Shown here: piece by piece, positions 2,743 to 30,951 of the stretch
Position numbering within the stretch: the stretch's first letter is position 1
Layout: every line of letters begins with the position of its first letter
Origin: Methanobacterium sp. BRmetb2
GTDB taxonomy: Archaea > Methanobacteriota > Methanobacteria > Methanobacteriales > Methanobacteriaceae
Reading direction: 5' to 3'
Assembly: GCA_003491285.1 (NCBI GenBank)
Contig: CP022705.1
Span: forward strand, 1,095,647 to 1,127,646
DNA length: 32,000 nt
Made by a program: the position numbers and the translations under genes
Notes under the pieces: model-generated
Seen by the model: only the letters and a program-made list of their open reading frames with translations
Databases searched by the model: none
What the model was told of the DNA's origin: nothing

Positions 2743-2856
2743 TAATCAGAATATGATTATTTTTATTGTTCAGACGAAGGACTTAAAAAACTTAATATAA
2801 TTAGAAAAATTTTTTATTTTTCAAGAGGGTCCACGTTTGAATGAGGAGGCGGTATA

Positions 2857-4320
2857 ATTAAGCGAGAGAAGAAATTTTTCGCGGCGTTAATAGCATGCAG
2901 CTTTTTGATGCTTTTTTCAATGGCTGGAGTTAATGCTGCAGAAAACGATTCTACATATACAAATATAACAAATGATAACATAATTCAAGAAGATCAGACG
3001 AATTCTACAATTAATGGCACTGAAGATCAGACAGATACTACTACATATCAAGCTAGTGCTGAGGATCCTACTGGTTTTGTAACTGTTGAAGAAGTTGAAA
3101 CAGCTGCAACTAACCTTAAAAATTATGTGGAAACACATAAAACTTTACCAGACACTATAGAAGTTGGATCAAAGACATTAACTATGGCCCAATTTTTAAA
3201 AGTTTTATTGACAACTACAATACATTTAGATCAAGGCATAATTGATTCAATAAACATTGACGCAGTGGATGATGCACCAAACCCTGCAGGTCAAAATATC
3301 TCAGACAACATTCTAAAATCAGGATACTTAGAAGATGCTATCAATATACTTAATTTCATGGATTCCTATGGAAGGGCACCAAACTATTGGAGTACTTCGA
3401 TTGGTAATCTACGGTTTGAAAATCTGGTACTTAGTTATGCTAATATCATGGATTTCAATGAGAATAATAATCGACTACCAAACTACACTAAGATTCGATC
3501 ATCCGATTTCAAATGGCCTGTGACTGTTGAAGAAATTGAAACAGCATCTATTTACCTTAAAAATTATGCGAACTCACATAAAGCTTTACCGGCGACTATT
3601 CAGGTTGGTTCCAACTCATTGACTATGTCTGAGTTTTTGAGGGTTTTAATGACAACCGTGATAAATTTAGATCAAAATGTATCTACACCAGTTGATATGG
3701 ATAATGTGAATAATGCGCCTAGTCCAGCAGGTGTGGTTATTTCAGGTAATATTCTAAAATCAGAGTATCTAAAAAATGCTACTACTATTCTAAATTTCAT
3801 AGATTCCAATGGAAGAGCACCAAATTATACGAATACTTCATTTGGTAATCTAAGGTTTGAATATATGGTGTATAATTTTGCTAAAATCATGGATTTCCAC
3901 AAAGATTACAATAGACTACCTAACTATACTATAGTCCAAACATCTGCAATGAGTTATGAATTAAAAGAAAATTATTCTTATTCAGTTTCAACTAGTGGTT
4001 TGAATGCAGTGGCCCGATATATAAATCAAAACTTCAATCACCGTTCTGGAGCTTCTACTACAGCAGCAGGTGTTTTAAAAACTGGTTATGGTGATTGTTG
4101 GGGATTAGCAGATTTGGCTGCCCAGGAGTTAAGTAAGAGTGGTTACAAAGTTCGTGTAGTTCAAGGTGCAAGCAGTGGTTCTTATAATCACCGTTGGGTG
4201 CAGTACTATGCTTATGGTAAATGGAATACTTTTGAATCTACAATGATTACCCAAAGATACGGTTCCAAACATTACTCATATGCCATAGCATCGGTAAGAA
4301 CAGTAATCAAATATTATTAA
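2857..4320 (+). CDS. Secreted paralog C: signal peptide, acidic sequon-rich linker, 2 x 147-aa pseudomurein-binding-repeat (PMBR)-like units, C-terminal minimal transglutaminase/Pei-like core
   Basis: The ORF track start (TTG at 2905) leaves only MMLFSMAGVNA, too short for a signal peptide. The frame is open back to the stop at 2842-2844. No ATG, GTG or TTG lies between them. ATT at 2857 follows GGAGG (2845-2849) by 7 nt and gives IKREKKFFAALIACSFLMLFSMAGVNA|AE. The C-terminal 121 aa are homologous to the C-termini of A and B (GYGDCWGLADLAAQEL, HRWVQY, FEST). Confidence 0.85.
   Translation: MKREKKFFAALIACSFLMLFSMAGVNAAENDSTYTNITNDNIIQEDQTNSTINGTEDQTDTTTYQASAEDPTGFVTVEEVETAATNLKNYVETHKTLPDTIEVGSKTLTMAQFLKVLLTTTIHLDQGIIDSINIDAVDDAPNPAGQNISDNILKSGYLEDAINILNFMDSYGRAPNYWSTSIGNLRFENLVLSYANIMDFNENNNRLPNYTKIRSSDFKWPVTVEEIETASIYLKNYANSHKALPATIQVGSNSLTMSEFLRVLMTTVINLDQNVSTPVDMDNVNNAPSPAGVVISGNILKSEYLKNATTILNFIDSNGRAPNYTNTSFGNLRFEYMVYNFAKIMDFHKDYNRLPNYTIVQTSAMSYELKENYSYSVSTSGLNAVARYINQNFNHRSGASTTAAGVLKTGYGDCWGLADLAAQELSKSGYKVRVVQGASSGSYNHRWVQYYAYGKWNTFESTMITQRYGSKHYSYAIASVRTVIKYY
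3076..3957 (+). repeat. 2 x 441-bp intragenic PMBR-like units in paralog C
   Basis: Units 3076-3516 and 3517-3957 both begin xVTVEE(V/I)ETA...LKNY and end ...NRLPNYT. Each holds three PMBR-like motifs: LKNYVExHxxLPxTIxVG, ILNFxDSxGRAPNY and IMDFxxxxNRLPNY. Confidence 0.85.
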
Positions 4321-4662: not shown

Positions 4663-4746
4663 AGATATATATTAATAATTCTATAGTCCGCAAACATATG
4701 TAAAATCATATATATACAAATAAAAATTGGTGATACTATTACGCGA

Positions 4747-6174
4747 ATGAAGTTTTTCGTGGCTTTATTAGCATGCAGCTTTTTGATGCTTTTTTCAATG
4801 GTTGGAGTTAATGCTGTTGAAAACAATACTACAGATGGAACTGTAATAAATGATATTAATGTATTGGAAGAGGAAAACAACCCTTTACAGTCCAGTGATA
4901 CAGATTCTACAAGTAGTGACACTGAAGATCAGACAGATACTACTACATATCAAGCTAGTGCTGAGGATCCTCCTATTAATTCTGTAAGTATTGAAGAGGT
5001 TGAAGCAGCTTCTGTTTTTCTTAGTGGTTATGTAGCATCACATAATACTTTGCCAGAGACTATTCAGGTTGGATCATATACATTGACTATGGCTCAGTTT
5101 TTAAAAGTTTTATTGTATACTACACTGCAGTTAGATCAGGGAAATCACAATCCCATAAAAATTAGCGCGGTAAATAATGCATCTAATCCATCTGATATTA
5201 ATGTTTCAGGCAACATTTTAAAATCAGAATATTTAAGAAATGCTATCAATATTCTTTATTTCATGAAGGACTATGGAAGGGCTCCGAACTATTGGCTCAC
5301 TTCCTTGGGCAATCTTAGATATGAAGCTATTGTACTAAGTTATGCTAAAATCATTGATTTCCATGAATATTATAATAGGTTACCTAACTATATTAAAATC
5401 AGCCGATACGATTTTAATAATTATAATAATGTTCATGGAATATGGATACAATCAGCAAGTGTGTACACCCTAGAGGTTAGTGAATTAATAAAAATGGACA
5501 TAACTGATGTGTTTGTTATATGTAAAAGAACAGGTTCTAATATATACTCCACCATCCTTCCTATATTACTCAATAAACTTCAAGGAACCAGTATAAGAGT
5601 TCATGCATGGATAATCTGTTTCCATGATGATAGTGGTTTTATTGATCCTTCCAATGAAACCTATCAACAAGATCTGATTAATTACATCTCATTACTAATG
5701 AATAACTATAATATTGACGGTGTACATTTAGATTATGTCAGATATCCTGGCGATGCTTATAACCATAATGGGACTGAAGTAATAACTAACTTCGTTGAAG
5801 ATGTCTACAACAGAGTTAAATCCATTAATAATGGACTCGCAGTTTCTGCGGCGTTAATGCCCGAAAAAGAGTCTAATGCATATTATTATGGGCAGGATTA
5901 TGGGCTATTAGCTCCTTATCTGGACTTTATGGTGCCAATGATTTACAAGTATGAGTACACCCCAACCACTGCGTGGATAGCTAGCACTACCCAGTATATT
6001 GTGGGTCAAGCAGGGGACACTCCAGTAATAGCAGGATTACAAACTTACAATGATGATTATGAACCAATTCTTCCTGCAGAATTAAGAAATGATATAAATG
6101 TAGCGGTGGCTAACGGTTCTTGTGGATTTGCATTATTTAGGTATGGATTAATCCACGAAGATTTCACATACTAA
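4747..6174 (+). CDS. Secreted paralog D: signal peptide, acidic linker, one PMBR-like unit (4981-5421), C-terminal TIM-barrel glycoside-hydrolase-like domain (GHL10 / DUF4015 type)
   Basis: ATG start gives MKFFVALLACSFLMLFSMVGVNA|VE. GGTGAT (4729-4734) also sits 3 nt before an in-frame ATT at 4738. The C-terminal 250 aa contain IRVHAWIICF...YNIDGVHLDYVRYPG...MVPMIYKY...GFALFRY, which resembles the (HL)DY(V/I)R(Y/F)P signature of the glycosyl-hydrolase-like families. Confidence 0.85.
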   Translation: MKFFVALLACSFLMLFSMVGVNAVENNTTDGTVINDINVLEEENNPLQSSDTDSTSSDTEDQTDTTTYQASAEDPPINSVSIEEVEAASVFLSGYVASHNTLPETIQVGSYTLTMAQFLKVLLYTTLQLDQGNHNPIKISAVNNASNPSDINVSGNILKSEYLRNAINILYFMKDYGRAPNYWLTSLGNLRYEAIVLSYAKIIDFHEYYNRLPNYIKISRYDFNNYNNVHGIWIQSASVYTLEVSELIKMDITDVFVICKRTGSNIYSTILPILLNKLQGTSIRVHAWIICFHDDSGFIDPSNETYQQDLINYISLLMNNYNIDGVHLDYVRYPGDAYNHNGTEVITNFVEDVYNRVKSINNGLAVSAALMPEKESNAYYYGQDYGLLAPYLDFMVPMIYKYEYTPTTAWIASTTQYIVGQAGDTPVIAGLQTYNDDYEPILPAELRNDINVAVANGSCGFALFRYGLIHEDFTY

Positions 6175-8057: not shown

Positions 8058-10076
8058 TTGGGTGGTATCATCACACGAAAGAAATTTTTTTTAGCTTTAT
8101 TAGCATGTAGCTTTTTAATGCTTTTTTCTATGACTGATGTTAATGCTGCAGAAAGCGATTCTGTAGAGGATGGAAATGTTACTGTACTTCCAGAAGATAA
8201 TTCTGTACAGTCCAGCGGATTAGAGTCTACTGAGGATGCGGAAGAAGAGACTGATACAAATACGTATCAAATTAGTGCTGATTATATTGGTTTTGTGACG
8301 GTTGAAGAGGTTGAAACAGCTTCTAATTACCTTAATTATTATGTAGAGACATATAACTGTTTACCAGAGACTATTACAGTTGGATCCTATGATTTGACTA
8401 TGTCTCAATTTTTAAAGATTTTATTGGATACTAGTATTCAGTTAGATCAGGAAGATTATATTACTCCAATACCATTCACTGACATGGGTGATGCACCTAA
8501 TCCAGCAGGACAATCCATTTCAGGATACATTCTTAAATCAGAATATATCCTGAATGCTGCTGCTATTCTTAATTTCATGGAGGGTTACGGAAGATCACCG
8601 AATTATTGGCGTACTTCTTTAGGTAATCTAAGGTTTGAGGGTCTTGTGCTTAGTTATGCTAATATAATCGATTTCTATAGGGAATATAATGAGCTGCCTA
8701 GCAACACTTTTATTATTCCATGTGATTTTATGGGGTTAGTGACTGTTGATGAAGTTGAAGCGGCTTCTGTTTATCTTAAAAATTACGTGGAGACAAATAA
8801 CCATTTTCCAGAGACTATCCCTGTTGGAGCAAAATCTTTAACCATTGCTCAGTTTTTCAAGGTTTTATTAACTGCAGTTGTTCAGATTGATCAGGAAGAT
8901 TATACTACTCTAATATATGTTACTGATTTGGGCGATGTGCCTAATTCAGCCGGGCATGTTATTTTGGGCAACATTTTAAAATCGGATTATATTTCAAACG
9001 CCGGGCAACTTCTTAGTTTTATGGAGTCATATGGGAGAGCACCGAATTATTGGCGTACTTCTTTAGGTAATCTATGTTTTGAGGGTCTTGTGCTTAGTTA
9101 TGCCAATATCATGGATTTCCAGGAATCTAATGGCAGATTACCCAACTATACAGTTGTCAATTTTTCAGGGGCTGCGACTTTTGACAATGTTAAAGAGGCG
9201 TCTCTATATCTTAAGAAATATGTAACGGCTCTTAAACTTTTACCGTGGAGTATTAAGGTTGGTTCTTATACTTTGACATTGTCTGAATTTTTGAAAGTTT
9301 TATTGATATCAGTGATAAATTCAGATCAAAATCTATTTACTTCGGTGGTTATCACTGATGTGGATAATCCTCCTAAGCCAGCAGGCCAAAATATTTCAGG
9401 TACCATTTTAAAATCAGAGTATATCCAAAATGCTAATGCTATTCTCAATTTCATTGATTCCAATGGGAGAGCACCGAATTATGGAATTACTTCGTTGGGT
9501 GATTTAAGATTTGATTACATTGTGTTTGGTTATGCTAAGATCATGGATTTCCACAAAGATTATAATAGACTCCCTAATTACACTGTTGTAAAAAATTCTG
9601 ACTTTAATTTCAGTACAATTAACGCAATTTACTATTCAGCTCAGCTTAGACCAACAAACAATTGTCAGTCCACAAGTTCAACCATAATAAATTTTGCTAA
9701 AAACTTAACTAAAAACTGTTTTACCACCTACGATAAGGCTTTAGCCATATTTGAATGGGTAAGAGATTATTGTGATTATACATTCTATTACAATACCAAA
9801 TATGGTGCAGTTGGAATGTTGTACCGTAAGGATGGTAATTGTATAGATCATTCACATTTAATCAATGCTTTAGCTCGTTCTGTGGGTATACCTGCTAGAT
9901 ATGCTCATGCAAAGTGTAAATTCACTAATATGACCGTGGGACACATATGGTCAGAATTATATATCCGGGGGAGATGGGTTACTGCTGATGCAACGAGCTT
10001 AAGAAATGATTTAGGGACACAATTGAATTGTAAAATATTGTATTGGAAAGGAAGATACACCCAACTACCTTTCTGA
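8058..10076 (+). CDS. Secreted paralog E: signal peptide, linker, 3 PMBR-like units, C-terminal transglutaminase-like (Pei-type Cys-His-Asp) domain
   Basis: The ORF track start is TTG at 8058. The codon homologous to the family ATT is ATC at 8070, 3 nt after GGTGGT (8061-8066). The C-terminus reads FEWVRDYCDYTFY...DGNCIDHSHLINALARSVGIPARY...GHIWSELY...RWVTADAT, a classical transglutaminase core with Cys, His and Asp. Confidence 0.9.
   Translation: MGGIITRKKFFLALLACSFLMLFSMTDVNAAESDSVEDGNVTVLPEDNSVQSSGLESTEDAEEETDTNTYQISADYIGFVTVEEVETASNYLNYYVETYNCLPETITVGSYDLTMSQFLKILLDTSIQLDQEDYITPIPFTDMGDAPNPAGQSISGYILKSEYILNAAAILNFMEGYGRSPNYWRTSLGNLRFEGLVLSYANIIDFYREYNELPSNTFIIPCDFMGLVTVDEVEAASVYLKNYVETNNHFPETIPVGAKSLTIAQFFKVLLTAVVQIDQEDYTTLIYVTDLGDVPNSAGHVILGNILKSDYISNAGQLLSFMESYGRAPNYWRTSLGNLCFEGLVLSYANIMDFQESNGRLPNYTVVNFSGAATFDNVKEASLYLKKYVTALKLLPWSIKVGSYTLTLSEFLKVLLISVINSDQNLFTSVVITDVDNPPKPAGQNISGTILKSEYIQNANAILNFIDSNGRAPNYGITSLGDLRFDYIVFGYAKIMDFHKDYNRLPNYTVVKNSDFNFSTINAIYYSAQLRPTNNCQSTSSTIINFAKNLTKNCFTTYDKALAIFEWVRDYCDYTFYYNTKYGAVGMLYRKDGNCIDHSHLINALARSVGIPARYAHAKCKFTNMTVGHIWSELYIRGRWVTADATSLRNDLGTQLNCKILYWKGRYTQLPF
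8292..9611 (+). repeat. 3 intragenic PMBR-like units in paralog E (444, 435 and 441 bp)
   Basis: Units start at 8292 (FVTVEEVETAS), 8736 (LVTVDEVEAAS) and 9171 (AATFDNVKEAS). Each ends with N(E/R)LP(S/N)(N/Y)T. Confidence 0.85.
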
Positions 10077-10484: not shown

Positions 10485-10558
10485 AGATTATGTTAGAATT
10501 CAAATAGTCAATAAATGATTTAAAAAAAATCATTTTAATTGAACTTGGAGGCGGTATA

Positions 10559-12598
10559 ATTAAGCGAAAGAAGAAATTTTTCGTGGCCATGTTAGCGTGC
10601 AGCTTTTTGATGCTTTTTTCAATGGCTGGTGTTAATGCTGCAGAAGATGATTCTTCAGATGGGATTATAATAAATGATACCAATGTAACTCAAGAAGATA
10701 ATCCTTTACAGTCCGATGATAACGATTCTACAGATAATGGCACAGAAGATACGGGAGATCAGACAGATACTATTACATATCAAACTAGTGCTGAGGGTTC
10801 TTCTGGTTCTGTGACGGTTGAAGAAGTTGAAACGGCTGCTAGCGAACTTAAGAATTATGTGGAGATACATAACAGTTTACCAGACACTATTCAGGTCGGT
10901 TCATATACTTTGACCATGGCTCAGTTTTTAAATGTCTTATTAAATACTACACTACAATTAGATCAGGAAATATATGATCGAATAACAATTAATACGGTGG
11001 ATGATGCACCTAACCCTTCTGGTAACGTTAATTCGGGTAATATTTTAAAATCAGAATATTTAGAAAACGCTGTCAGTATCCTTAATTTTATGGATACTCA
11101 TGGAAGGGCACCAAACTATGGGAGTACTTCTTTAGGTAATCTAAGATTTGAAGGCCTTGTATTTAGTTTTGCTAAAATCATAGATTTTTACAAAGATTTT
11201 GATAGGCTACCTAACTACGCAGTTATTATCCAATCCGGTTTCATGGGTTCTGTGACGGTTGAAGAAGTTGAAGCAGCTGCTAGCGAACTTAAGAATTATG
11301 TGGAGATACATAACAGTTTACCAGACACTATTCAGGTCGGTTCAAAGTATTTGACCATGGCTCAGTTTTTAAGTGTCTTATTAAATACTACGCTACAATT
11401 AGATCAGGGAAATTATTCTCCGATAAAGATTATTGCAATGGGCGATGCACCTAATCCAACAGGTGAAATTGTTTCAGGTAACATTCTAAAATCAGAGTAT
11501 TTACTAAATGCTACAAATATTCTTAATTTCATGGATTCCTATGGAAGGGCACCAAACTATTGCAATATTACCTTAGGTAATTCTAGATTTGAATATATGG
11601 TGTTGAGTTTTGCTAAAATCATAGATTTCTACAAAGAGAATGATAGGCTACCAAACTATACTAAAATTCTTCCAACGGATTCTATAGGATCAGTGACTTT
11701 TGAAGAGATTGAAGAAGCAGCAGTTTATCTTAAAGAGTATATAACAGCACTTAAATTTTTACCAAAGACTATTCAAGTTGGTTCCTATACTTTGACCATG
11801 TCAGAATTTTTAAAAATTTTATTGACAACAGTAATAAATTCAGATCAAAATATATTTACACCAGTAAATGTCACAGATGTGAATAATTCGCCAAATCCTG
11901 CAGGTCAGAAAATTTCGGCCAACATTCTAAAATCAGAATATATGCAAAATGCTATTGATATTCTTAATTTTATGGATACTTATGGAAGGGCACCAAACTA
12001 TTGGAAAACTTCATTAGGTAATCTCAGGTTTGAATATGTAGTATTTAGTTTTGCTAAAATCATAGATTTTCAAAAAGAGTACAATAGACTACCTAACTAC
12101 GCGCTCATACATACATCTGACATACTTTTCAATGTAATTGACGCACCGGGCAATTTACTACAGTATCTTATGCCAACAGATAATTGTCAGTCATTAAGTT
12201 CAACCATAATAAATTTTGCTAAAAATTTAACTAAAAACTGTTATACTGACTATGATAAGGCTAAAGTCATATTTGAATGGGTAAGAGACTATTGTAGCTA
12301 TACGTTCTATTACAATACCAAATATGGTGCAGTAGAAATGTTAAACCGTAAGGATGGTAATTGTATAGATCATTCACATTTAATCAATGCTTTAGCTCGT
12401 TCTGTGGGTATACCTGCTAGATATGCTCATGCACAGTGTAAATTCACCAGCATGACAGTGGGACATATTTGGTCTGAACTATACGTAAATGGAAGATGGG
12501 TCACTGCTGATGCGACAAGCACAAGAAACAATTTAGGAACACAAGTGAACTGTTCAATATTATATTGGAAAGGAAGATACGCAGAACTACCTTTCTAA
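10559..12598 (+). CDS. Secreted paralog F: signal peptide, linker, 3 x 147-aa PMBR-like units, C-terminal transglutaminase-like (Pei-type) domain
   Basis: The ORF track gives 10583 (GTG), extended in frame to ATT at 10559 within ...GGAGGCGGTATA ATT AAG CGA AAG AAG AAA TTT TTC. The C-terminal domain (12131-12598) is colinear with 9612-10076 of paralog E, including an 88-bp identical block. Confidence 0.9.
   Translation: MKRKKKFFVAMLACSFLMLFSMAGVNAAEDDSSDGIIINDTNVTQEDNPLQSDDNDSTDNGTEDTGDQTDTITYQTSAEGSSGSVTVEEVETAASELKNYVEIHNSLPDTIQVGSYTLTMAQFLNVLLNTTLQLDQEIYDRITINTVDDAPNPSGNVNSGNILKSEYLENAVSILNFMDTHGRAPNYGSTSLGNLRFEGLVFSFAKIIDFYKDFDRLPNYAVIIQSGFMGSVTVEEVEAAASELKNYVEIHNSLPDTIQVGSKYLTMAQFLSVLLNTTLQLDQGNYSPIKIIAMGDAPNPTGEIVSGNILKSEYLLNATNILNFMDSYGRAPNYCNITLGNSRFEYMVLSFAKIIDFYKENDRLPNYTKILPTDSIGSVTFEEIEEAAVYLKEYITALKFLPKTIQVGSYTLTMSEFLKILLTTVINSDQNIFTPVNVTDVNNSPNPAGQKISANILKSEYMQNAIDILNFMDTYGRAPNYWKTSLGNLRFEYVVFSFAKIIDFQKEYNRLPNYALIHTSDILFNVIDAPGNLLQYLMPTDNCQSLSSTIINFAKNLTKNCYTDYDKAKVIFEWVRDYCSYTFYYNTKYGAVEMLNRKDGNCIDHSHLINALARSVGIPARYAHAQCKFTSMTVGHIWSELYVNGRWVTADATSTRNNLGTQVNCSILYWKGRYAELPF
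10808..12130 (+). repeat. 3 x 441-bp intragenic PMBR-like units in paralog F
   Basis: Units start at 10808, 11249 and 11690 (SVTVEEVE / SVTVEEVE / SVTFEEIE). The first 160 bp of units 1 and 2 differ at only about 8 positions. Confidence 0.9.
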
Positions 12599-13014: not shown

Positions 13015-13123
13015 ATATTTATGTTAGAATCTCATAATCAGCAAATAAACTATAATATCGTTTTATATTCTATATCCAGTAAATATCTAAAAAAATTCCA
13101 TTATATAATTTGGAGGGGTTTAC

Positions 13124-14563
13124 ATTAAGCGAGAGAAATTTTTCGTGGTGTTAATAGCGTGCAGCTTTTTGATGCTTTTTTCAATGGCTGGTGTTAATGC
13201 TGCAGAAGATGATTCTTCAGATGGGACTATAATAAATGATACCAATGTAACTCAAGAAGATAATCCTTTACAGTCCGATGATAACGATTCTACAGATAAT
13301 GGCACAGAAGATACGGGAGATCAGACAGATACTATTACATATCAAACTAGTGCTGAGGGTTCTTCTGGTTCTGTGACGGTTGAAGAAGTTGAAACGGCTG
13401 CTAGCGAACTTAAGAATTATGTGGAGATACATAACAGTTTACCAGACACTATTCAGGTCGGTTCATATACTTTGACCATGTCAGAATTTTTAAAGATTTT
13501 ATTGATGACTGTCATAAATTTAGATCAAAATGTGTCTACGCCAGTGGCTGTCACGGAGGTGGGTGATGCACCTAATCCTGCAGGTCAAAATATTTCGGGT
13601 AATCTTCTAAAATCAGAGTATCTGCAAAATGCTATTGGTATTCTTAATTTTATTGATTCCAATGGAAGGGCACCAAATTATTTTAGGACGTCTTTGGGTA
13701 ATCTACGGTTTGAATATATAGTATTTAGTTATACTAAAATCATGGATTTCTATGGAGATTATGATAGGCTCCCTAACTATACTAAAATTTGTTTATCTGA
13801 TTTTATGCAGTCTTTAACAGTTGATGAGATTGAAACAGCTTCTAATTGTCTTAAAAATTATGTACAGGCAAATAAAATTCTACCAGACACTATTCAGGTC
13901 GGTTCAAAGTGTTTAACCATGTCAGAATTTTTAAATGTTTTATTGATGGCAGTGATTAATTCAGATAGAAATGTGTCTATGCCCGTGGCTGTCACGGAGG
14001 TGGGTGATGCACCTAATCCTGCAGGTCAAAATATTTCAGGTAACATTCAAAAATCAGAATATGTAAGAAAGGCAACCAATATTCTAAATTTCATGAATTC
14101 CAATGATAGAGCACCAAACTATTCTACCACATCTTTAGGTAATCTAAGGTACGAATATATAGTGTTCAATTTTGCAAAGATCATGGACTTCCATAAATAC
14201 TACAATAGACTGCCTAACTATACCGTAGTCCAAACATCTGCCATGAGTTATCAAATGATGGAAATTTCTTCTAAATACGGTGCTAAAAACGTTATTGTGA
14301 CAGATAGTTATGTTCAATGCTCTGGAAGATGTACTTGTAGCTTGTATCAAGATTACGATTATCATACAGTTAAATTTGTTAACTACTGTCCTTATTGCCA
14401 TAAAAATTCTACACTGGACTATGAAGAAGGAAATACAATTTATGATAACCCTGAAGGAATGTGGGTGTGCAGTATGAGTAAAGGTGGCTGTGATGCAGAT
14501 TTCTGCTTAGTGCATGGTAAAGCCCATGTGACTAGTGGTGCTAAATATTTAACCTCTGCATAA
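13124..14563 (+). CDS. Secreted paralog G: signal peptide, linker, 2 x 147-aa PMBR-like units, C-terminal Cys-rich zinc-ribbon-like domain of unknown function
   Basis: The ORF track gives 13145 (GTG), extended to ATT at 13124 after GGAGG (13112-13116) plus 7 nt. The C-terminal ~100 aa read CSGRCTC...YCPYCH...WVCSMSKGGCDADFCLVHGKAH (8 Cys and several His arranged in CxxxCxC, CxxC and Cx6Cx4CxxH groups). Confidence 0.85.
   Translation: MKREKFFVVLIACSFLMLFSMAGVNAAEDDSSDGTIINDTNVTQEDNPLQSDDNDSTDNGTEDTGDQTDTITYQTSAEGSSGSVTVEEVETAASELKNYVEIHNSLPDTIQVGSYTLTMSEFLKILLMTVINLDQNVSTPVAVTEVGDAPNPAGQNISGNLLKSEYLQNAIGILNFIDSNGRAPNYFRTSLGNLRFEYIVFSYTKIMDFYGDYDRLPNYTKICLSDFMQSLTVDEIETASNCLKNYVQANKILPDTIQVGSKCLTMSEFLNVLLMAVINSDRNVSMPVAVTEVGDAPNPAGQNISGNIQKSEYVRKATNILNFMNSNDRAPNYSTTSLGNLRYEYIVFNFAKIMDFHKYYNRLPNYTVVQTSAMSYQMMEISSKYGAKNVIVTDSYVQCSGRCTCSLYQDYDYHTVKFVNYCPYCHKNSTLDYEEGNTIYDNPEGMWVCSMSKGGCDADFCLVHGKAHVTSGAKYLTSA
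13370..14251 (+). repeat. 2 x 441-bp intragenic PMBR-like units in paralog G
   Basis: Units 13370-13810 and 13811-14251. The second ends with LPNYTVVQTSAMSY, the same junction as in paralog C. Confidence 0.85.
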
Positions 14564-14824
14564 ACAATAAATAGGCTGAATTTATTATATCAGTCTAATT
14601 TTATTTATTTTTTGACATTGTTAAGCAGCACTGTAATTTATGTGAGAATTCTAAGTTTTTTTAAGATCATTTTTTTAATTGAAAATAATGGATTAATCCT
14701 TTTTCAGATTTCACCTTAAAGAATTATCTAATTAAAATTAGCCTTTAATTTTAATTCTCTTAAATAAGATTATTTTCGAATTGTATAAATAATAGGAGAA
14801 TTATTATTAAAAGTGGTGTTAAAA

Positions 14825-15376
14825 ATGTGGTTATACATAATTATAGGAATTATAATAATAATATTACTGGCAGCCCTGGCTTTAATGTATAACAGTCTGG
14901 TGGGCTTACGCAATAGAGTTAAAAATGCCTGGTCTCAGATAGATGTTCAACTAAAAAGAAGGACAGACCTAATACCTAACCTGGTTGAAACAGTTAAAGG
15001 ATATGCAACACACGAAAAAGGAGTTTTTGAAGAAGTAACCAGGGCTCGTTCAAGTTTAATAAACGCCCAAACAGTTAAAGAAAATGAAGAGGCTAATAAT
15101 ATGTTAACCGGTGCTCTTAAATCTCTTTTTGCAGTTGCCGAGAATTACCCTGATTTAAAAGCAAGTCAAAACTTCCAGGACCTGCAGATGCAACTGGCTG
15201 AAACTGAAGATAAAATTGCTTACTCACGTCAGTTTTACAATGACACAGTTTTAATGTACAATAACAAAGTTCAAATGTTCCCGAGTAATATCATTGCCCG
15301 CATGTTCAACTTCACAGAATCCGAATTCTTTGAAACAGCAGAAACTGAACGTTCAGTTCCTAAAGTAGAATTTTAG
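14825..15376 (+). CDS. lemA: LemA family membrane protein
   Basis: An N-terminal TM helix is followed by [43 protein letters not shown]...[14 protein letters not shown]...RQFYN, which is typical of LemA. ATG at 14825, preceded by GGTG (14815-14818), is preferred over the ORF-track GTG at 14813. Confidence 0.9.
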
Positions 15377-21196: not shown

Positions 21197-22027
21197 ATGG
21201 TAGTTAAAATAGGAGTTATTAAATGTGGTAATATTGGTACCTCTCCTGTAATTGATTTATTACTCGATGAGAGGGCTGACAGACCGAATATAGACACCTG
21301 TGTAATCGGTTCTGGAGCTAAGATGAACCCAGAAGAAATTGAAAAAGCTGTACCTTTAATGCTGGAAATGGAAAGGGACTTTGTAATATTCATTAGCCCA
21401 AACCCTGGTGCTCCAGGCCCTGCTAAAGCAAGAGAATTATTATCTGCAGCAGATGTACCTGCAATCATCATTGGTGATGCTCCAGGACTAAGAGCTAAAG
21501 ACGAAATGGATGAACAAGGCTTAGGCTACATAATAGTTAAAGCAGACCCAATGATTGGAGCTAGAAGAGAACTTCTGGACCCAACTGAAATGGCCTCATT
21601 TAACTCTGACGTAATAAAAGTATTAGCATTAACCGGAGCTTACCGAGTTGTACAAAACACCATCGACGCTGCAGTAGCTAATGTTGAAGCAGGAAGTGGT
21701 GTAGAACTTCCAAAAGTTGTTATATCTAGAGATGTTGCTATAGAAGCTGCAAACTTTGCTAACCCATATGCTAAAGCCAAAGCAATGGCTGCATACGAAA
21801 TTGCAACCACCGTAGCAAATATAGATGTTGAAGGATGTTTCATGGTACAAGACGCTGCAAAATACATACCAATCGTTGCATCAGCACACGAAATGTTAGG
21901 TACAGCAGCAAAACTTGCTATGGAAGCTCGTGAAATAGAAAAAGCTAACGACACAGTTACCAGAACCCCACACGGTGGAGATGGTAGCACAGTTTCAAAA
22001 GTAGCTTTAATGGACAAACCACAATAA
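21197..22027 (+). CDS. mtd: F420-dependent methylenetetrahydromethanopterin dehydrogenase
   Basis: MVVKIGVIKCGNIGTSPVIDLLLDERADR...FISPNPGAPGP is the characteristic Mtd N-terminus, and the length (276 aa) fits. GGTGAT RBS (21188-21193) lies 3 nt before the ATG. Confidence 0.95.
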   Translation: MVVKIGVIKCGNIGTSPVIDLLLDERADRPNIDTCVIGSGAKMNPEEIEKAVPLMLEMERDFVIFISPNPGAPGPAKARELLSAADVPAIIIGDAPGLRAKDEMDEQGLGYIIVKADPMIGARRELLDPTEMASFNSDVIKVLALTGAYRVVQNTIDAAVANVEAGSGVELPKVVISRDVAIEAANFANPYAKAKAMAAYEIATTVANIDVEGCFMVQDAAKYIPIVASAHEMLGTAAKLAMEAREIEKANDTVTRTPHGGDGSTVSKVALMDKPQ

Positions 22028-29464: not shown

Positions 29465-30685
29465 TTAAATAGACTCGTCTTCATCAAGGGCAAGTCGCAT
29501 TGTATCTGGATCTTGCGGCATATGTTCTAAAAAGTCTTCTGCAGCTCTTCTAACATCTCTGGATCCTATTATGTATCTTCCAACTACAATGATATCTGCT
29601 CCACTGTCCAGGGCTTCTTCTACTTTTTGAGGTGTTATTCCGCCGGCAACAGCTACCTGTTTTCCTTCACCTAGAATGTCTTTGATCTGGTTGATGTTAC
29701 CCCATTCAGTTATTTCTGCTTGTTCTTCTCCTCTCTCGGCTTTAAGGGTTTCCAGATCAACATTTCTATGTAACAGTACTATATCTGGTTTGAATCTTAA
29801 TTTACCAAGTTTTTCCACAAAATTATCCACATTCATCATGTCTAATATAGCGTATATCCCCTGTTTGGATGCCTCGTGAACTGCTTTTTCTATGGATTCA
29901 ATGGTTCCAAGCCCAGATATTGCAACTGCATCTGCTGTTTCATCCGCCGCCATTTTAACTTCTATTCTTCCAACGTCCAGTGTTTTAAGGTCGGCTATGA
30001 TAAATGCATCTTTTCGGAGTTCTCTGATTTTACTTACAATGCTCACACCAAATTTCTTAACCAGAGGTGTACCTGCCTCTAGGAGTATTCTTTCCCTGTC
30101 TGGTAGGCTGTTTATTATTCTTTCCATTTCTTCCATGTTATCCAGGTCAAGTGCTACTTGTAGGTAAGGTGGATTCCATAGTCTGACTACTCTGAATCCC
30201 ATGATTGGATGGGTTCCACGATCTTTTTCCCCTAACACTTTATCGATTGAAGGGTAGTTTTCCAGGGCTCTTTTCAGGGCTAATTTGGTTGCTCCATAAT
30301 TATATTGATATATTTTACGGAAATCTTCTGCCTCCGGATGGATAAATACACTGGCAATAATTACCAGATCTTCTACTTTGTCTTTGGGTATTATTCCTTC
30401 TGAGACTGCGTCGGCAACAGCTCTACCTACTGCAGTTTGTGCTGGGCCAAAAATTTTATCTGCATCTTTTAAATCTCTAACTGTTACTTTTGGAACAATC
30501 AAAGTTGATGGTTTGGTCATTAAGTTTGGTCTTATAACTGAGAGAAGTGGTGTGTGGCCTATTGAAAGCTGGGTTAAATTGTTTGCAAAAGCAGCACCAG
30601 CATGACCATCTTTACTACCTATAATTAGATCAACATGAGCTATTTCGTTACCATTTCCTATGAGGGCTTCCCCTATATTGTACAT
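29465..30685 (-). CDS. fae-hps: Bifunctional formaldehyde-activating enzyme / 3-hexulose-6-phosphate synthase
   Basis: The N-terminal Fae region reads [34 protein letters not shown]...HTPLL. The C-terminal HPS/OMPDC-like barrel reads YLQVALDLD...ADLKTLDVG...VAVAGGI. ATG at 30685 follows AGGAGG by 7 nt and is preferred over the ORF-track start at 30721. Confidence 0.9.
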
Positions 30686-30951
30686 AACATTTCCTCCTAT
30701 ATAATAATTTGATCTAAACAATATAAATAAATAACATTTCTTTGTTGAAAACTTCTTAATATTAATCAGCTTATTTAAGTTAAATTGATTTTCTAATTCT
30801 AATTATAAATATTTTAATATTATAAAATTTTAAAAATCTTCTAAATTAAGATAATTCTTAAAAATTATCTAATAAAGCTGTAAATATCTATTTTAATTAT
30901 TTAAGTTAAAAAAAGAAATAAAATTTTTTTAATCTTATTTTATGTAGACAG

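Follow-up and report, generated by a model that had tools for sequence, protein, structure and literature searches.

Putative ATT start codons behind extended SD sequences in a family of wall-associated Methanobacterium proteins

The paralog family and its initiation regions

Which codon starts translation of a secreted protein whose reading frame holds no ATG, GTG or TTG where its signal peptide ought to begin? This question is raised by one member (paralog C) of a family of seven paralogs (A to G), all encoded on the forward (+) strand of the window, i.e., the whole stretch of 32,000 nt of the Methanobacterium sp. BRmetb2 genome analyzed here; the family is characterized by a signal peptide followed by pseudomurein-binding repeats (PMBR) and transglutaminase-like or GH18-like domains. 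As an earlier note on this DNA had pointed out, the frame of paralog C is open from a stop at 2842-2844 and has no canonical codon before 2905. The stop is a TGA, the frame opens at 2845, and the first canonical codons are those at 2905 (TTG) and 2908 (ATG); a start at 2905/2908 leaves only MMLFSMAGVNA ahead of the cleavage motif VNA/AE (slash, cleavage site). The codons from 2845 read GGA GGC GGT ATA ATT AAG CGA GAG AAG AAA TTT TTC and continue as GCG GCG TTA ATA GCA TGC AGC TTT TTG ATG.

[quoted passage not shown] The window holds five matches to the pattern as compared to 0.16 expected, and none of 100 shuffles reached five. As these copies belong to paralogs, the repetition of the motif reflects common descent and not five independent events; conservation across diverged relatives is thus the meaningful test, and this test, run separately, was positive (see below). 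The codon preceding ATT does vary as described; A has AGA and G has TAC at this place, and B, C and F share ATA.

In paralog A, the initiation region (90-104) reads GGAGGCGGC-AGA-ATT, with the ATT at 102-104 and a predicted SD:anti-SD duplex of -11.0 kcal/mol, and the ORF from this ATT (102-830) specifies 242 aa with a signal or anchor peptide, a K/Y/W-rich repeat and a transglutaminase-like C-terminus just under the Pfam cut-off. The initiation regions of B (1417-1431) and C (2845-2859) read GGAGGCGGTATA-ATT and directly adjoin a stop codon (TAA in B, the TGA at 2842-2844 in C); their ATT codons (1429-1431 and 2857-2859; predicted duplexes of -12.8 and -12.9 kcal/mol, respectively) open ORFs of 222 aa (1429-2097) and 487 aa (2857-4320), the latter with PMBR repeats and a transglutaminase-like core. 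The same GGAGGCGGTATA-ATT is found in F (10547-10561; ATT at 10559-10561; -12.1 kcal/mol), whose ORF (10559-12598; 679 aa) has four PMBR matches and a PDB 3isr-like transglutaminase core, and G (13112-13126) carries GGAGGGGTTTAC-ATT (ATT at 13124-13126; -12.6 kcal/mol) ahead of an ORF of 479 aa (13124-14563) with PMBR and a Cys-rich C-terminus. The remaining two paralogs are of a different type, as the earlier note had recognized. Paralog D (initiation region 4729-4749) reads GGTGAT(4729)-ACT-ATT(4738) ACG CGA ATG(4747), with the ATT in SD register and an ATG three codons past it, and its ORF (4738-6174) encodes PMBR and a GH18-like domain. Paralog E (initiation region 8061-8072) has ATC (8070) at the homologous site, 3 nt after its GGTGGT (8061), in the order GGTGGT-ATC-ATC ACA CGA; the SD is overlapped by an in-frame TTG (8058) that itself lacks one, and the ORF (8070-10076) encodes PMBR and a transglutaminase core.

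A TATA-box-like element, TTTATATA, is located at 2735-2742, 122 nt 5' of the ATT of paralog C, and sequence equivalents are found at 1308 (B), 4655 (D), 7967 (E), 10477 (F) and 13007 (G); these elements 5' of B to G suggest separate promoters and leadered mRNAs. The TATAAT within GGTATAATT was rejected as a promoter element, as most species carry GGTAAAATT. Termination-reinitiation by way of a uORF ending at the SD-adjoining stop was rejected as a general mechanism, as A, F and most relatives do not have that stop.

SD register, predicted pairing and protein features

The spacing between SD and ATT had been claimed to equal that of ATG genes, which proved correct for fae-hps (AGGAGG-aaatgtt-ATG) and mtd (GGTGAT-ata-ATG). 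A MurJ-like gene shares the arrangement of mtd and a DUF2207 gene reads GGTGGT-aaa-ATG, and both the GGAGG-N7 and the GGTGAT-N3 spacings are common to ATT genes and ATG genes of the same genome. The pairing computation used an assumed 16S rRNA 3' end in place of that of the BRmetb2 genome. With this assumed end, the extended SD GGAGGCGGU is predicted to pair at 8 of 9 positions, the conserved spacer bases lengthening the predicted complementarity. Predicted duplexes at the GGAGG-type ATT sites (A, B, C, F and G) range from -11.0 to -12.9 kcal/mol and are the strongest in the window; those of D and E are about -9 kcal/mol (-9.1 kcal/mol for ATC 8070) and those of ordinary genes about -7 to -10 kcal/mol, and the TTG at 8058 of paralog E has a predicted pairing of only -2.3 kcal/mol.

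Signal peptides were assessed by simple sequence rules for Sec signals (a positively charged n-region, a hydrophobic stretch of approx. 10-20 residues, and small side chains at -3 and -1). By these rules, the first 27 codons of paralog C (2857-2937) specify a signal peptide with the n-region M/I-KREKK, the segment FFAALIACSFLMLFSMAG and the cleavage site VNA/AE, an uncharged run of 19 residues lying between n-region and cleavage site, and D to G are alike; in A and B, the N-terminus may instead act as an anchor that is not cleaved off. Among the mature domains, PMBR (PF09373; cut-off of 24.9 bits) was matched by C (69 bits), D (31.8), E (77), F (126) and G (75), and this profile had no match in A and B. 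The transglutaminase-like core (PF01841; cut-off of 23 bits) was matched by C (31 bits), E (76.9) and F (80.5), scored slightly under the cut-off in A (20.8) and B (22.6), and had no match in D and G. Paralog F also matched PDB 3isr, a putative cysteine protease (E = 2.7e-10). With the Pei endoisopeptidase profile (Peptidase C71, PF12386; cut-off of 22 bits), E and F scored 19.3 and 18.1 bits, both under the cut-off; lytic activity is therefore a conjecture, and the label "potentially lytic" given to these proteins is a conjectural reading of their transglutaminase-like cysteine-protease domains. All ATT genes tested encode PMBR or transglutaminase-like proteins; unrelated secreted proteins, i.e., the DUF2207 protein and a Chlam_PMP-repeat protein in the relative genome locus L002, start with ATG.

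Conservation among relatives and competing readings

The earlier note had asked whether orthologs keep the ATT, and relatives in many other Methanobacterium genomes do retain it at equal SD distance; an in-frame stop between the ATT and the downstream start, which the note had named as evidence against its proposal, was found in no relative. When signal-peptide proteins of Methanobacterium are clustered at <70% identity, at least 22 clusters, drawn from many MAGs, have ATT in SD register (N7-N9), although these clusters share descent and the conservation counts are not independent. Related loci were searched for with an alignment of 8 PMBR sequences, and in a sample picked via the PMBR domain only, 16-18 of the 22 loci whose 5' end was complete were of the ATT type. 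ATT is invariant in the alignment despite an Ile codon usage of 0.44 for ATT, 0.40 for ATA and 0.16 for ATC, and the neighboring codons vary, with AAG, AAA, AAT or ACG as the second codon, CGA, AGA, AGT or CGG as the third, and AAA before the ATT in most other species. The exact codon is not universal, as L014 and L148 have ATA ACG where others carry ATT. Three relatives have ATG AAG CGA in place of ATT; in L146 (GGAGG-cagtata-ATG AAG CGA) the N7 position and the next codons are identical to those of ATT genes, and the ATG stands at N6 in L011+8391 and at N9 in L147. An ATG also occurs 2-3 codons past the ATT in D, L008/L009 and P0044, and could be the working start in these genes.

Among the matches listed from a metagenome scan with the start-codon-neutral pattern GGAGGCGGTAAANNNAA, L031 and L132 were the only family members, both with ATT; the matches listed were mostly chance matches in unrelated bacteria, and the scan gives no unbiased triplet distribution. 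A viral-contig scan for GGAGGCGGTAWAATTAA returned 10 chance matches and no family members, and protein searches directed at further genera retrieved nothing but proteins and fragments from Methanobacteriaceae or Methanobacterium.

In the leader alignment, GGaGGcGgtaWa ATT aa is the sole conserved block. Divergence is 22% upstream of the initiation region (34 gaps, mostly of 1-2 nt), 11% within it and 15% downstream of the ATT, where substitutions number 59/32/73 by codon position and indels are almost absent (in-frame 3-nt indels only). The coding signature begins directly after the ATT.

These patterns bear on the other positions at which translation might start. Gene callers, including NCBI's, choose the first canonical codon downstream (TTG 2905/ATG 2908 in C, GTG 10583 in F, GTG 13145 in G, TTG 126 in A, TTG 1453 in B), which would turn the ATT region into an untranslated leader and would let F and G keep a 17-residue uncharged stretch. 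We consider this very unlikely, as the downstream candidates have essentially no SD (-0.2 to -3.3 kcal/mol; TTG 2905, -1.5; ATG 2908, -0.2; GTG 10583, -0.2; GTG 13145, -3.3) and the segment that they skip evolves as coding sequence, with the codon-position pattern and triplet indels given above and Arg encoded by CGA, AGA or CGG. Downstream starts would, moreover, strip all n-region K/R from A, B, C, E, F and G and leave C and E with no more than 6-9 uncharged residues; a canonical codon is first reached at codon 17 in paralog C, codon 105 in L003 and codon 174 in L025, and relatives have ATG at the very position of the ATT. A canonical start upstream of the SD, which would make the "GHGGGKIKRK" of many database proteins a genuine N-terminal extension, appears extremely improbable. 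In several relatives, gene callers do use an ATG or TTG that lies in frame 5-28 codons upstream, and such codons (e.g., the ATG or TTG 19 codons upstream in L150 and the TTG 7 codons upstream in L025) may be the start in those individual relatives. However, stops adjoin the SD in B and C, many relatives have no canonical codon in the upstream open frame (L002+7454, L010, L013, L015, L031 and L153), orthologs differ by 1-nt indels between SD and ATT that shift the upstream ATG to another frame (L003 vs. L002, L004 vs. L010), some of the indels located further upstream likewise shift an ATG or TTG, the region has the high divergence and many non-triplet indels described above, and the "GGG" is merely the translated SD.

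Initiation at the adjacent ATA or another near-cognate codon, or shared among ATA, ATT and, in genes that have one, a downstream ATG, would fit the ATA ATT of B, C and F, the ATA ACG of L014 and L148, and the ATG 2-3 codons later in D, L008 and L009; we nevertheless regard it as unlikely, since ATT alone is conserved where the preceding codon is AGA (A), TAC (G) or AAA (most other species), the register of ATG genes matches ATT, and in L146 ATG stands for ATT and not for ATA. The conservation of the spacer CGGTAWA beyond what SD spacing needs might instead suggest that the block of 15-17 nt is a cis-regulatory RNA or a protein-binding element (e.g., a riboswitch, a thermometer or a repressor site), with ATT kept for that role and not as a start codon. 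There is no support for a structured regulatory RNA, however, as an Rfam search of the whole window gave no family at the gathering threshold and RNAalifold found 0 conserved pairs in 15 diverged leaders; the conserved spacer bases add complementarity to 16S rRNA, and such an element would leave the missing start codon unsolved. This explanation, which has little probability in our assessment, is compatible with ATT initiation and is not an alternative to it.

Overall, the comparative data strongly support ATT (ATC in E) as the family start codon, and several genes, among them B and C with their SD-adjoining stop, have no alternative. We consider it probable that the real starts are the ATT codons at 2857, 102, 1429, 10559, 13124 and 4738 (D) and the ATC at 8070 (E), and that their output is low; they may have been retained to limit or co-tune wall-active enzymes.

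Annotation, expected output and significance

Current gene calls for this family are shortened, or lengthened through the ribosome-binding site, by gene callers including NCBI's. The public call P0001 (98-100% identical to paralog C) begins at the internal ATG 2908, and NCBI CIT01_05610 (Methanobacterium sp. BRmetb2) is paralog G called from residue 17. As a consequence of starts systematically mis-called by Prodigal-type callers and the NCBI pipeline, signal peptides disappear from the annotation, and the number of secreted, wall-associated proteins of Methanobacterium is underestimated.

With ATT as the start, we infer the following course of events, including initiation at ATT itself, its low efficiency and the reason for its selection. 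Each paralog gene would have a separate promoter and yield a leadered mRNA, on which the unusually long SD is predicted to anchor the small ribosomal subunit. AUU would thereby come to lie in the P site, its register being identical to that found for AUG genes of the genome. Initiator Met-tRNA would read AUU with a third-position mismatch, so that the protein would begin with Met, followed by the K/R-rich n-region, the hydrophobic core and the VNA/A cleavage site seen in the sequence; the product would be exported via Sec and retained on pseudomurein by its PMBR repeats. As AUU would be a poor start codon opposed by aIF1 proofreading, low output per mRNA would be expected, and the strong SD would fix the site of initiation; conversely, AUU may not be weak in Methanobacteriales. 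The long retention of ATT across a large clade of wall-associated proteins would then serve to limit or co-tune production of wall-active enzymes, and it is plausible, by analogy, that the weak codon throttles them.

In the bacterial genes infC (encoding IF3) and pcnB, initiation at a conserved AUU preceded by a functional SD is low and sensitive to initiation factors, and infC regulates its own expression, as it is IF3 that discriminates against AUU. The analogy with infC drawn in the earlier note stands as regards a poorly recognized start codon; it does not extend to autoregulation, which nothing suggests, as the Methanobacterium genes encode wall proteins (PMBR or transglutaminase-like) and not initiation factors, and the archaeal proofreader would be aIF1. 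A parallel is the secreted Enterococcus faecalis pilus tip protein EbpA, whose experimentally studied ATT start lowers expression (PMC4447247); there, too, the annotated downstream ATG of a surface protein was wrong, and the SD together with the requirement for an N-terminal signal had led to the in silico prediction of the ATT (PMC4447247). ebpA is, however, a single bacterial gene with experimental proof, whereas the Methanobacterium family, known from sequence alone, belongs to an archaeon with eukaryote-like initiation factors and keeps the codon across paralogs and many species. Similarly, the deposited Asgard tubulin AtubA is N-terminally truncated, and its conserved N-terminus is regained with an ATT further upstream, plausibly spaced from the RBS, a start inferred from sequence and structure only, for one gene in one lineage and with no family-wide or cross-species conservation analysis (PMC13394414). 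PeiW and PeiP (Peptidase C71) and other PMBR proteins of Methanobacteriales likewise combine PMBR with a Cys-protease or transglutaminase-like domain, with pseudomurein as their predicted binding partner or substrate (PF09373; PMC2812497, PMC4335013). The Pei enzymes differ in being phage or prophage lysins; the paralogs score 18-19 bits against the C71 cut-off of 22 and place the signal peptide first and the catalytic domain C-terminally. Start codons of PMBR/Pei proteins are not discussed in these two papers (PMC2812497, PMC4335013), a 2020 review of archaeal translation initiation names AUG, GUG and UUG only (PMC7531240), and we found no description of ATT starts in Methanobacteriales in the literature.

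Methanogen proteins that act on the wall have been considered as targets in efforts to mitigate methane (PMC2812497, PMC4335013), work for which the correct N-termini and the expression logic of these proteins are relevant. The family, with long-conserved AUU starts behind strong SDs, would also suit study of aIF1 start-codon fidelity in an SD-dependent archaeon. A more speculative idea, which we hold to be doubtful at present, is that the extended SD and AUU define a translational regulon for much of the PMBR-anchored, pseudomurein-remodelling secretome of Methanobacterium, with output following start-codon stringency (aIF1 activity or abundance, temperature, growth state). If true, this regulon would be the archaeal counterpart of IF3-dependent AUU discrimination and would couple wall remodelling to the physiological state of the cell.

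Paralog family in the window

The window (G+C 33%) carries mtd (21197-22027) and, on the minus strand, fae-hps (29465-30721), and is therefore DNA of a hydrogenotrophic methanogen. Paralogs A to G, seven genes for predicted secreted wall proteins, all lie on one strand within the first 14.6 kb. Profile searches found PF09373 pseudomurein-binding repeats (PMBRs) in C to G, the PF01841 transglutaminase-like core in C, E and F, and a GH18-like domain in D; A and B scored slightly under the cut-off of the transglutaminase profile, and the Pei endoisopeptidase profile (C71) stayed below threshold against the paralogs. The catalytic domain of F is similar to PDB 3isr, a putative cysteine protease. 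In G (13124-14563) the C-terminal ~90 residues are Cys-rich (…CSGRCTCS…CPYCH…CDADFC…), in place of the transglutaminase domain of other paralogs, and showed no Pfam match.

Paralog A contains a perfect 12-nt tandem repeat (AAAAAGTACTAT, 5.6 copies, 276-342) coding for (KKYY)n within a K/Y/W/R-rich segment, which may serve as a spacer that binds the wall or a polymer; a weaker counterpart is present in B (around 1590-1680), and comparable segments rich in basic and aromatic residues are found in P0029, P0034 and P0042, which are distant DUF4015-PMBR-TGase relatives. Directly past the stop codon of B, a partly palindromic 32-nt unit (AGTAATCGGATATTACTAA...) is repeated 2.8 times (2079-2172) and may represent a terminator or a duplication scar. 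The start of the LemA gene (14813-14830) is ambiguous, with a mechanically listed GTG, then GTG TTA AAA ATG, and weak Shine-Dalgarno (SD) pairing.

Candidate ATT starts and predicted ribosome pairing

The earlier note had proposed, from this sequence, that the family uses a conserved ATT start, and the anatomy it described was confirmed. ATT lies at 102, 1429, 2857, 4738, 10559 and 13124 in A, B, C, D, F and G, respectively. The arrangement GGAGG-N7-ATT-AAG-CGA (N7, nt between SD and start codon) occurs five times in the window versus 0.16 expected. The element in D is GGTGAT-N3-ATT, followed three codons on by ATG, and that in E is GGTGGT-N3-ATC (8070). The ATG codons of canonical window genes lie in the same register (AGGAGG-N7 in fae-hps, GGTGAT-N3 in mtd and a MurJ-like gene, GGTGGT-N3 in DUF2207). 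As these copies are paralogs, their repetition in the window alone is no evidence, and the test must use diverged relatives.

Initiation at canonical codons further downstream is an unlikely alternative. In C, where TGA (2842-2844) adjoins GGAGGCGGTATA ATT AAG CGA, the first later ATG, GTG or TTG is the TTG at 2905, followed by ATG at 2908, and a downstream start leaves only 11 residues ahead of the VNA|AE cleavage motif. Such starts would leave six of the seven paralogs without any n-region K/R, and C and E with only 6-9 residues; in the related loci L003 and L025, no canonical codon occurs downstream until codons 105 and 174, respectively. With an assumed 16S rRNA 3' tail, predicted pairing was -0.2 to -3.3 kcal/mol for the downstream candidates. 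At the ATT sites of A, B, C, F and G it was -11.0 to -12.9 kcal/mol, stronger than anywhere else in the window except at one small ORF. The conserved spacer bases G-G-U are predicted to lengthen the SD duplex beyond one mismatch, which may explain their conservation.

A TTTATATA/ATTATATA-like box is located 82-122 nt upstream of each paralog's ATT (boxes at 1308, 2735, 4655, 7967, 10477 and 13007), and a like arrangement recurs among relatives from other genomes. Many leaders also have A-run or T-run stretches 15-35 nt ahead of the SD, with no conserved structure predicted.

Start codons and divergence in relatives

Scanning a single genome for each species with the PMBR motif GNILKSEY only yielded 25 loci from many Methanobacterium and Methanobacteriaceae MAGs. 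Start codons were typed by walking upstream in frame from the PMBR match in the 22 loci whose 5' end was complete. GGAGGCGGTA(A/T)A ATT AA., or a near variant with N8-N9, was found in 16 of these; two had ATT TAT ATG, one ATA ACG, and three a canonical or ambiguous start. After the sample was widened to neighbouring genes and eight loci reached via individual proteins, ATT in SD register was observed in at least 22 clusters (<70% identity; not phylogenetically independent) of proteins with predicted signal peptides. Protein searches directed at other genera gave only Methanobacteriaceae or Methanobacterium proteins and fragments. All ATT genes examined belong to the PMBR or transglutaminase-like group, with varying partner domains (BPL_N/DJ-1-like, GH-like, TGase), and two unrelated secreted proteins start with ATG. 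The near-cognate codon can also be ATA, as in L014 and L148; in D-type genes the nearby ATG may be the true start.

ATT is invariant in the representatives (genome Ile codons: ATT 44%, ATA 40%, ATC 16%), and the codons after it vary freely, with Arg encoded by CGA, AGA or CGG. L146 has GGAGG-cagtata-ATG AAG CGA as compared to GGAGG-cggtata-ATT AAG CGA in the window, with the same spacing and next two codons, and ATG AAG CGA occurs at N6 in L011+8391 and at N9 in L147; ATT thus stands where a canonical start stands.

Single-nt indels between SD and ATT (L003 versus L002, L010 versus L004) put upstream ATG/TTG codons out of frame, and ATT remains in frame with the body. Across twelve independent pairs, divergence was 22% in the leader (-72 to -16; 34 gaps, mostly 1-2 nt), 11% in the block from -15 to +4, and 15% in the 90 nt past ATT, where substitutions by codon position were 59/32/73 with essentially no indels. 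An alignment of 15 diverged leaders showed conservation solely at GGaGGcGgtaWa ATT aa and no predicted conserved base pairs, and Rfam gave no match.

In L020 (5637-5740), ATT, SD and signal peptide are out of frame with the rest of the protein, and reading from ATT meets a stop after 32 codons; the locus is either a pseudogene with a frameshift or misassembled. A start-codon-neutral pattern scan repeatedly matched a GCTTA(T/C)AA(Y)(R)GGAGGCGGTAAATAGAA context on low-GC contigs of unrelated metagenomes (L028, L041, L043, L050, L083, L094, L104, L115, L116, L124, L125 and L136), which looks like conserved RNA or organelle sequence, separate from the ATT finding. Most of the matches listed by this metagenome scan were due to chance, and a scan of viral contigs yielded 10 chance matches with no family member among them.

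Proposed initiation and selection; gene annotation

According to the best-supported reading of these sequence data, the mRNA is leadered and its extended SD would set AUU in the P site, where initiator tRNA would begin the signal peptide. As ATT is kept across proteins just 30-40% identical, with occasional switches to ATG and an ATG gained 2-3 codons downstream in several lineages, the pattern argues for retention by selection rather than drift. By analogy with EbpA, a secreted Enterococcus faecalis pilus tip protein with an ATT start (PMC4447247), the simplest reason for this retention would be low output as a selected trait. The parallel with bacterial infC drawn in the earlier note holds for a poorly recognised codon and does not extend to a feedback loop.

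AUU starts are known in bacteria. An ATT start was lately inferred for one Asgard gene (PMC13394414), and a review of archaeal initiation gives AUG, GUG and UUG only as start codons (PMC7531240); our literature search found no description of ATT starts in Methanobacteriales. Against this background, what appears new is an AUU initiation module conserved family-wide, across many species, in an archaeon.

The module has a direct consequence for annotation. NCBI protein CIT01_05610 (Methanobacterium sp. BRmetb2) matches paralog G exactly, except that it starts at residue 17. Among 88 homologs, many called proteins start within the hydrophobic core (e.g., MLFSMAGVNA... and MAILLLCTIALPFSAGTAFA...), others are extended upstream and contain GHGGGKIKRK, GGGIIKR or GGGKINS (i.e., translated SD plus Ile), and a minority start with a normal M-K-R n-region. 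The N-terminus is wrong in P0001, P0002, P0003, P0005 (CIT01_05610), P0016 and P0050, being either shortened to MLFSMAGVNA... or continued upstream across the SD (…GGGKINS…, …ERGGGIIKR…). Overall, public calls for this family appear to be systematically wrong at the N-terminus, and as they are truncated or extended, signal peptides are missed or distorted.
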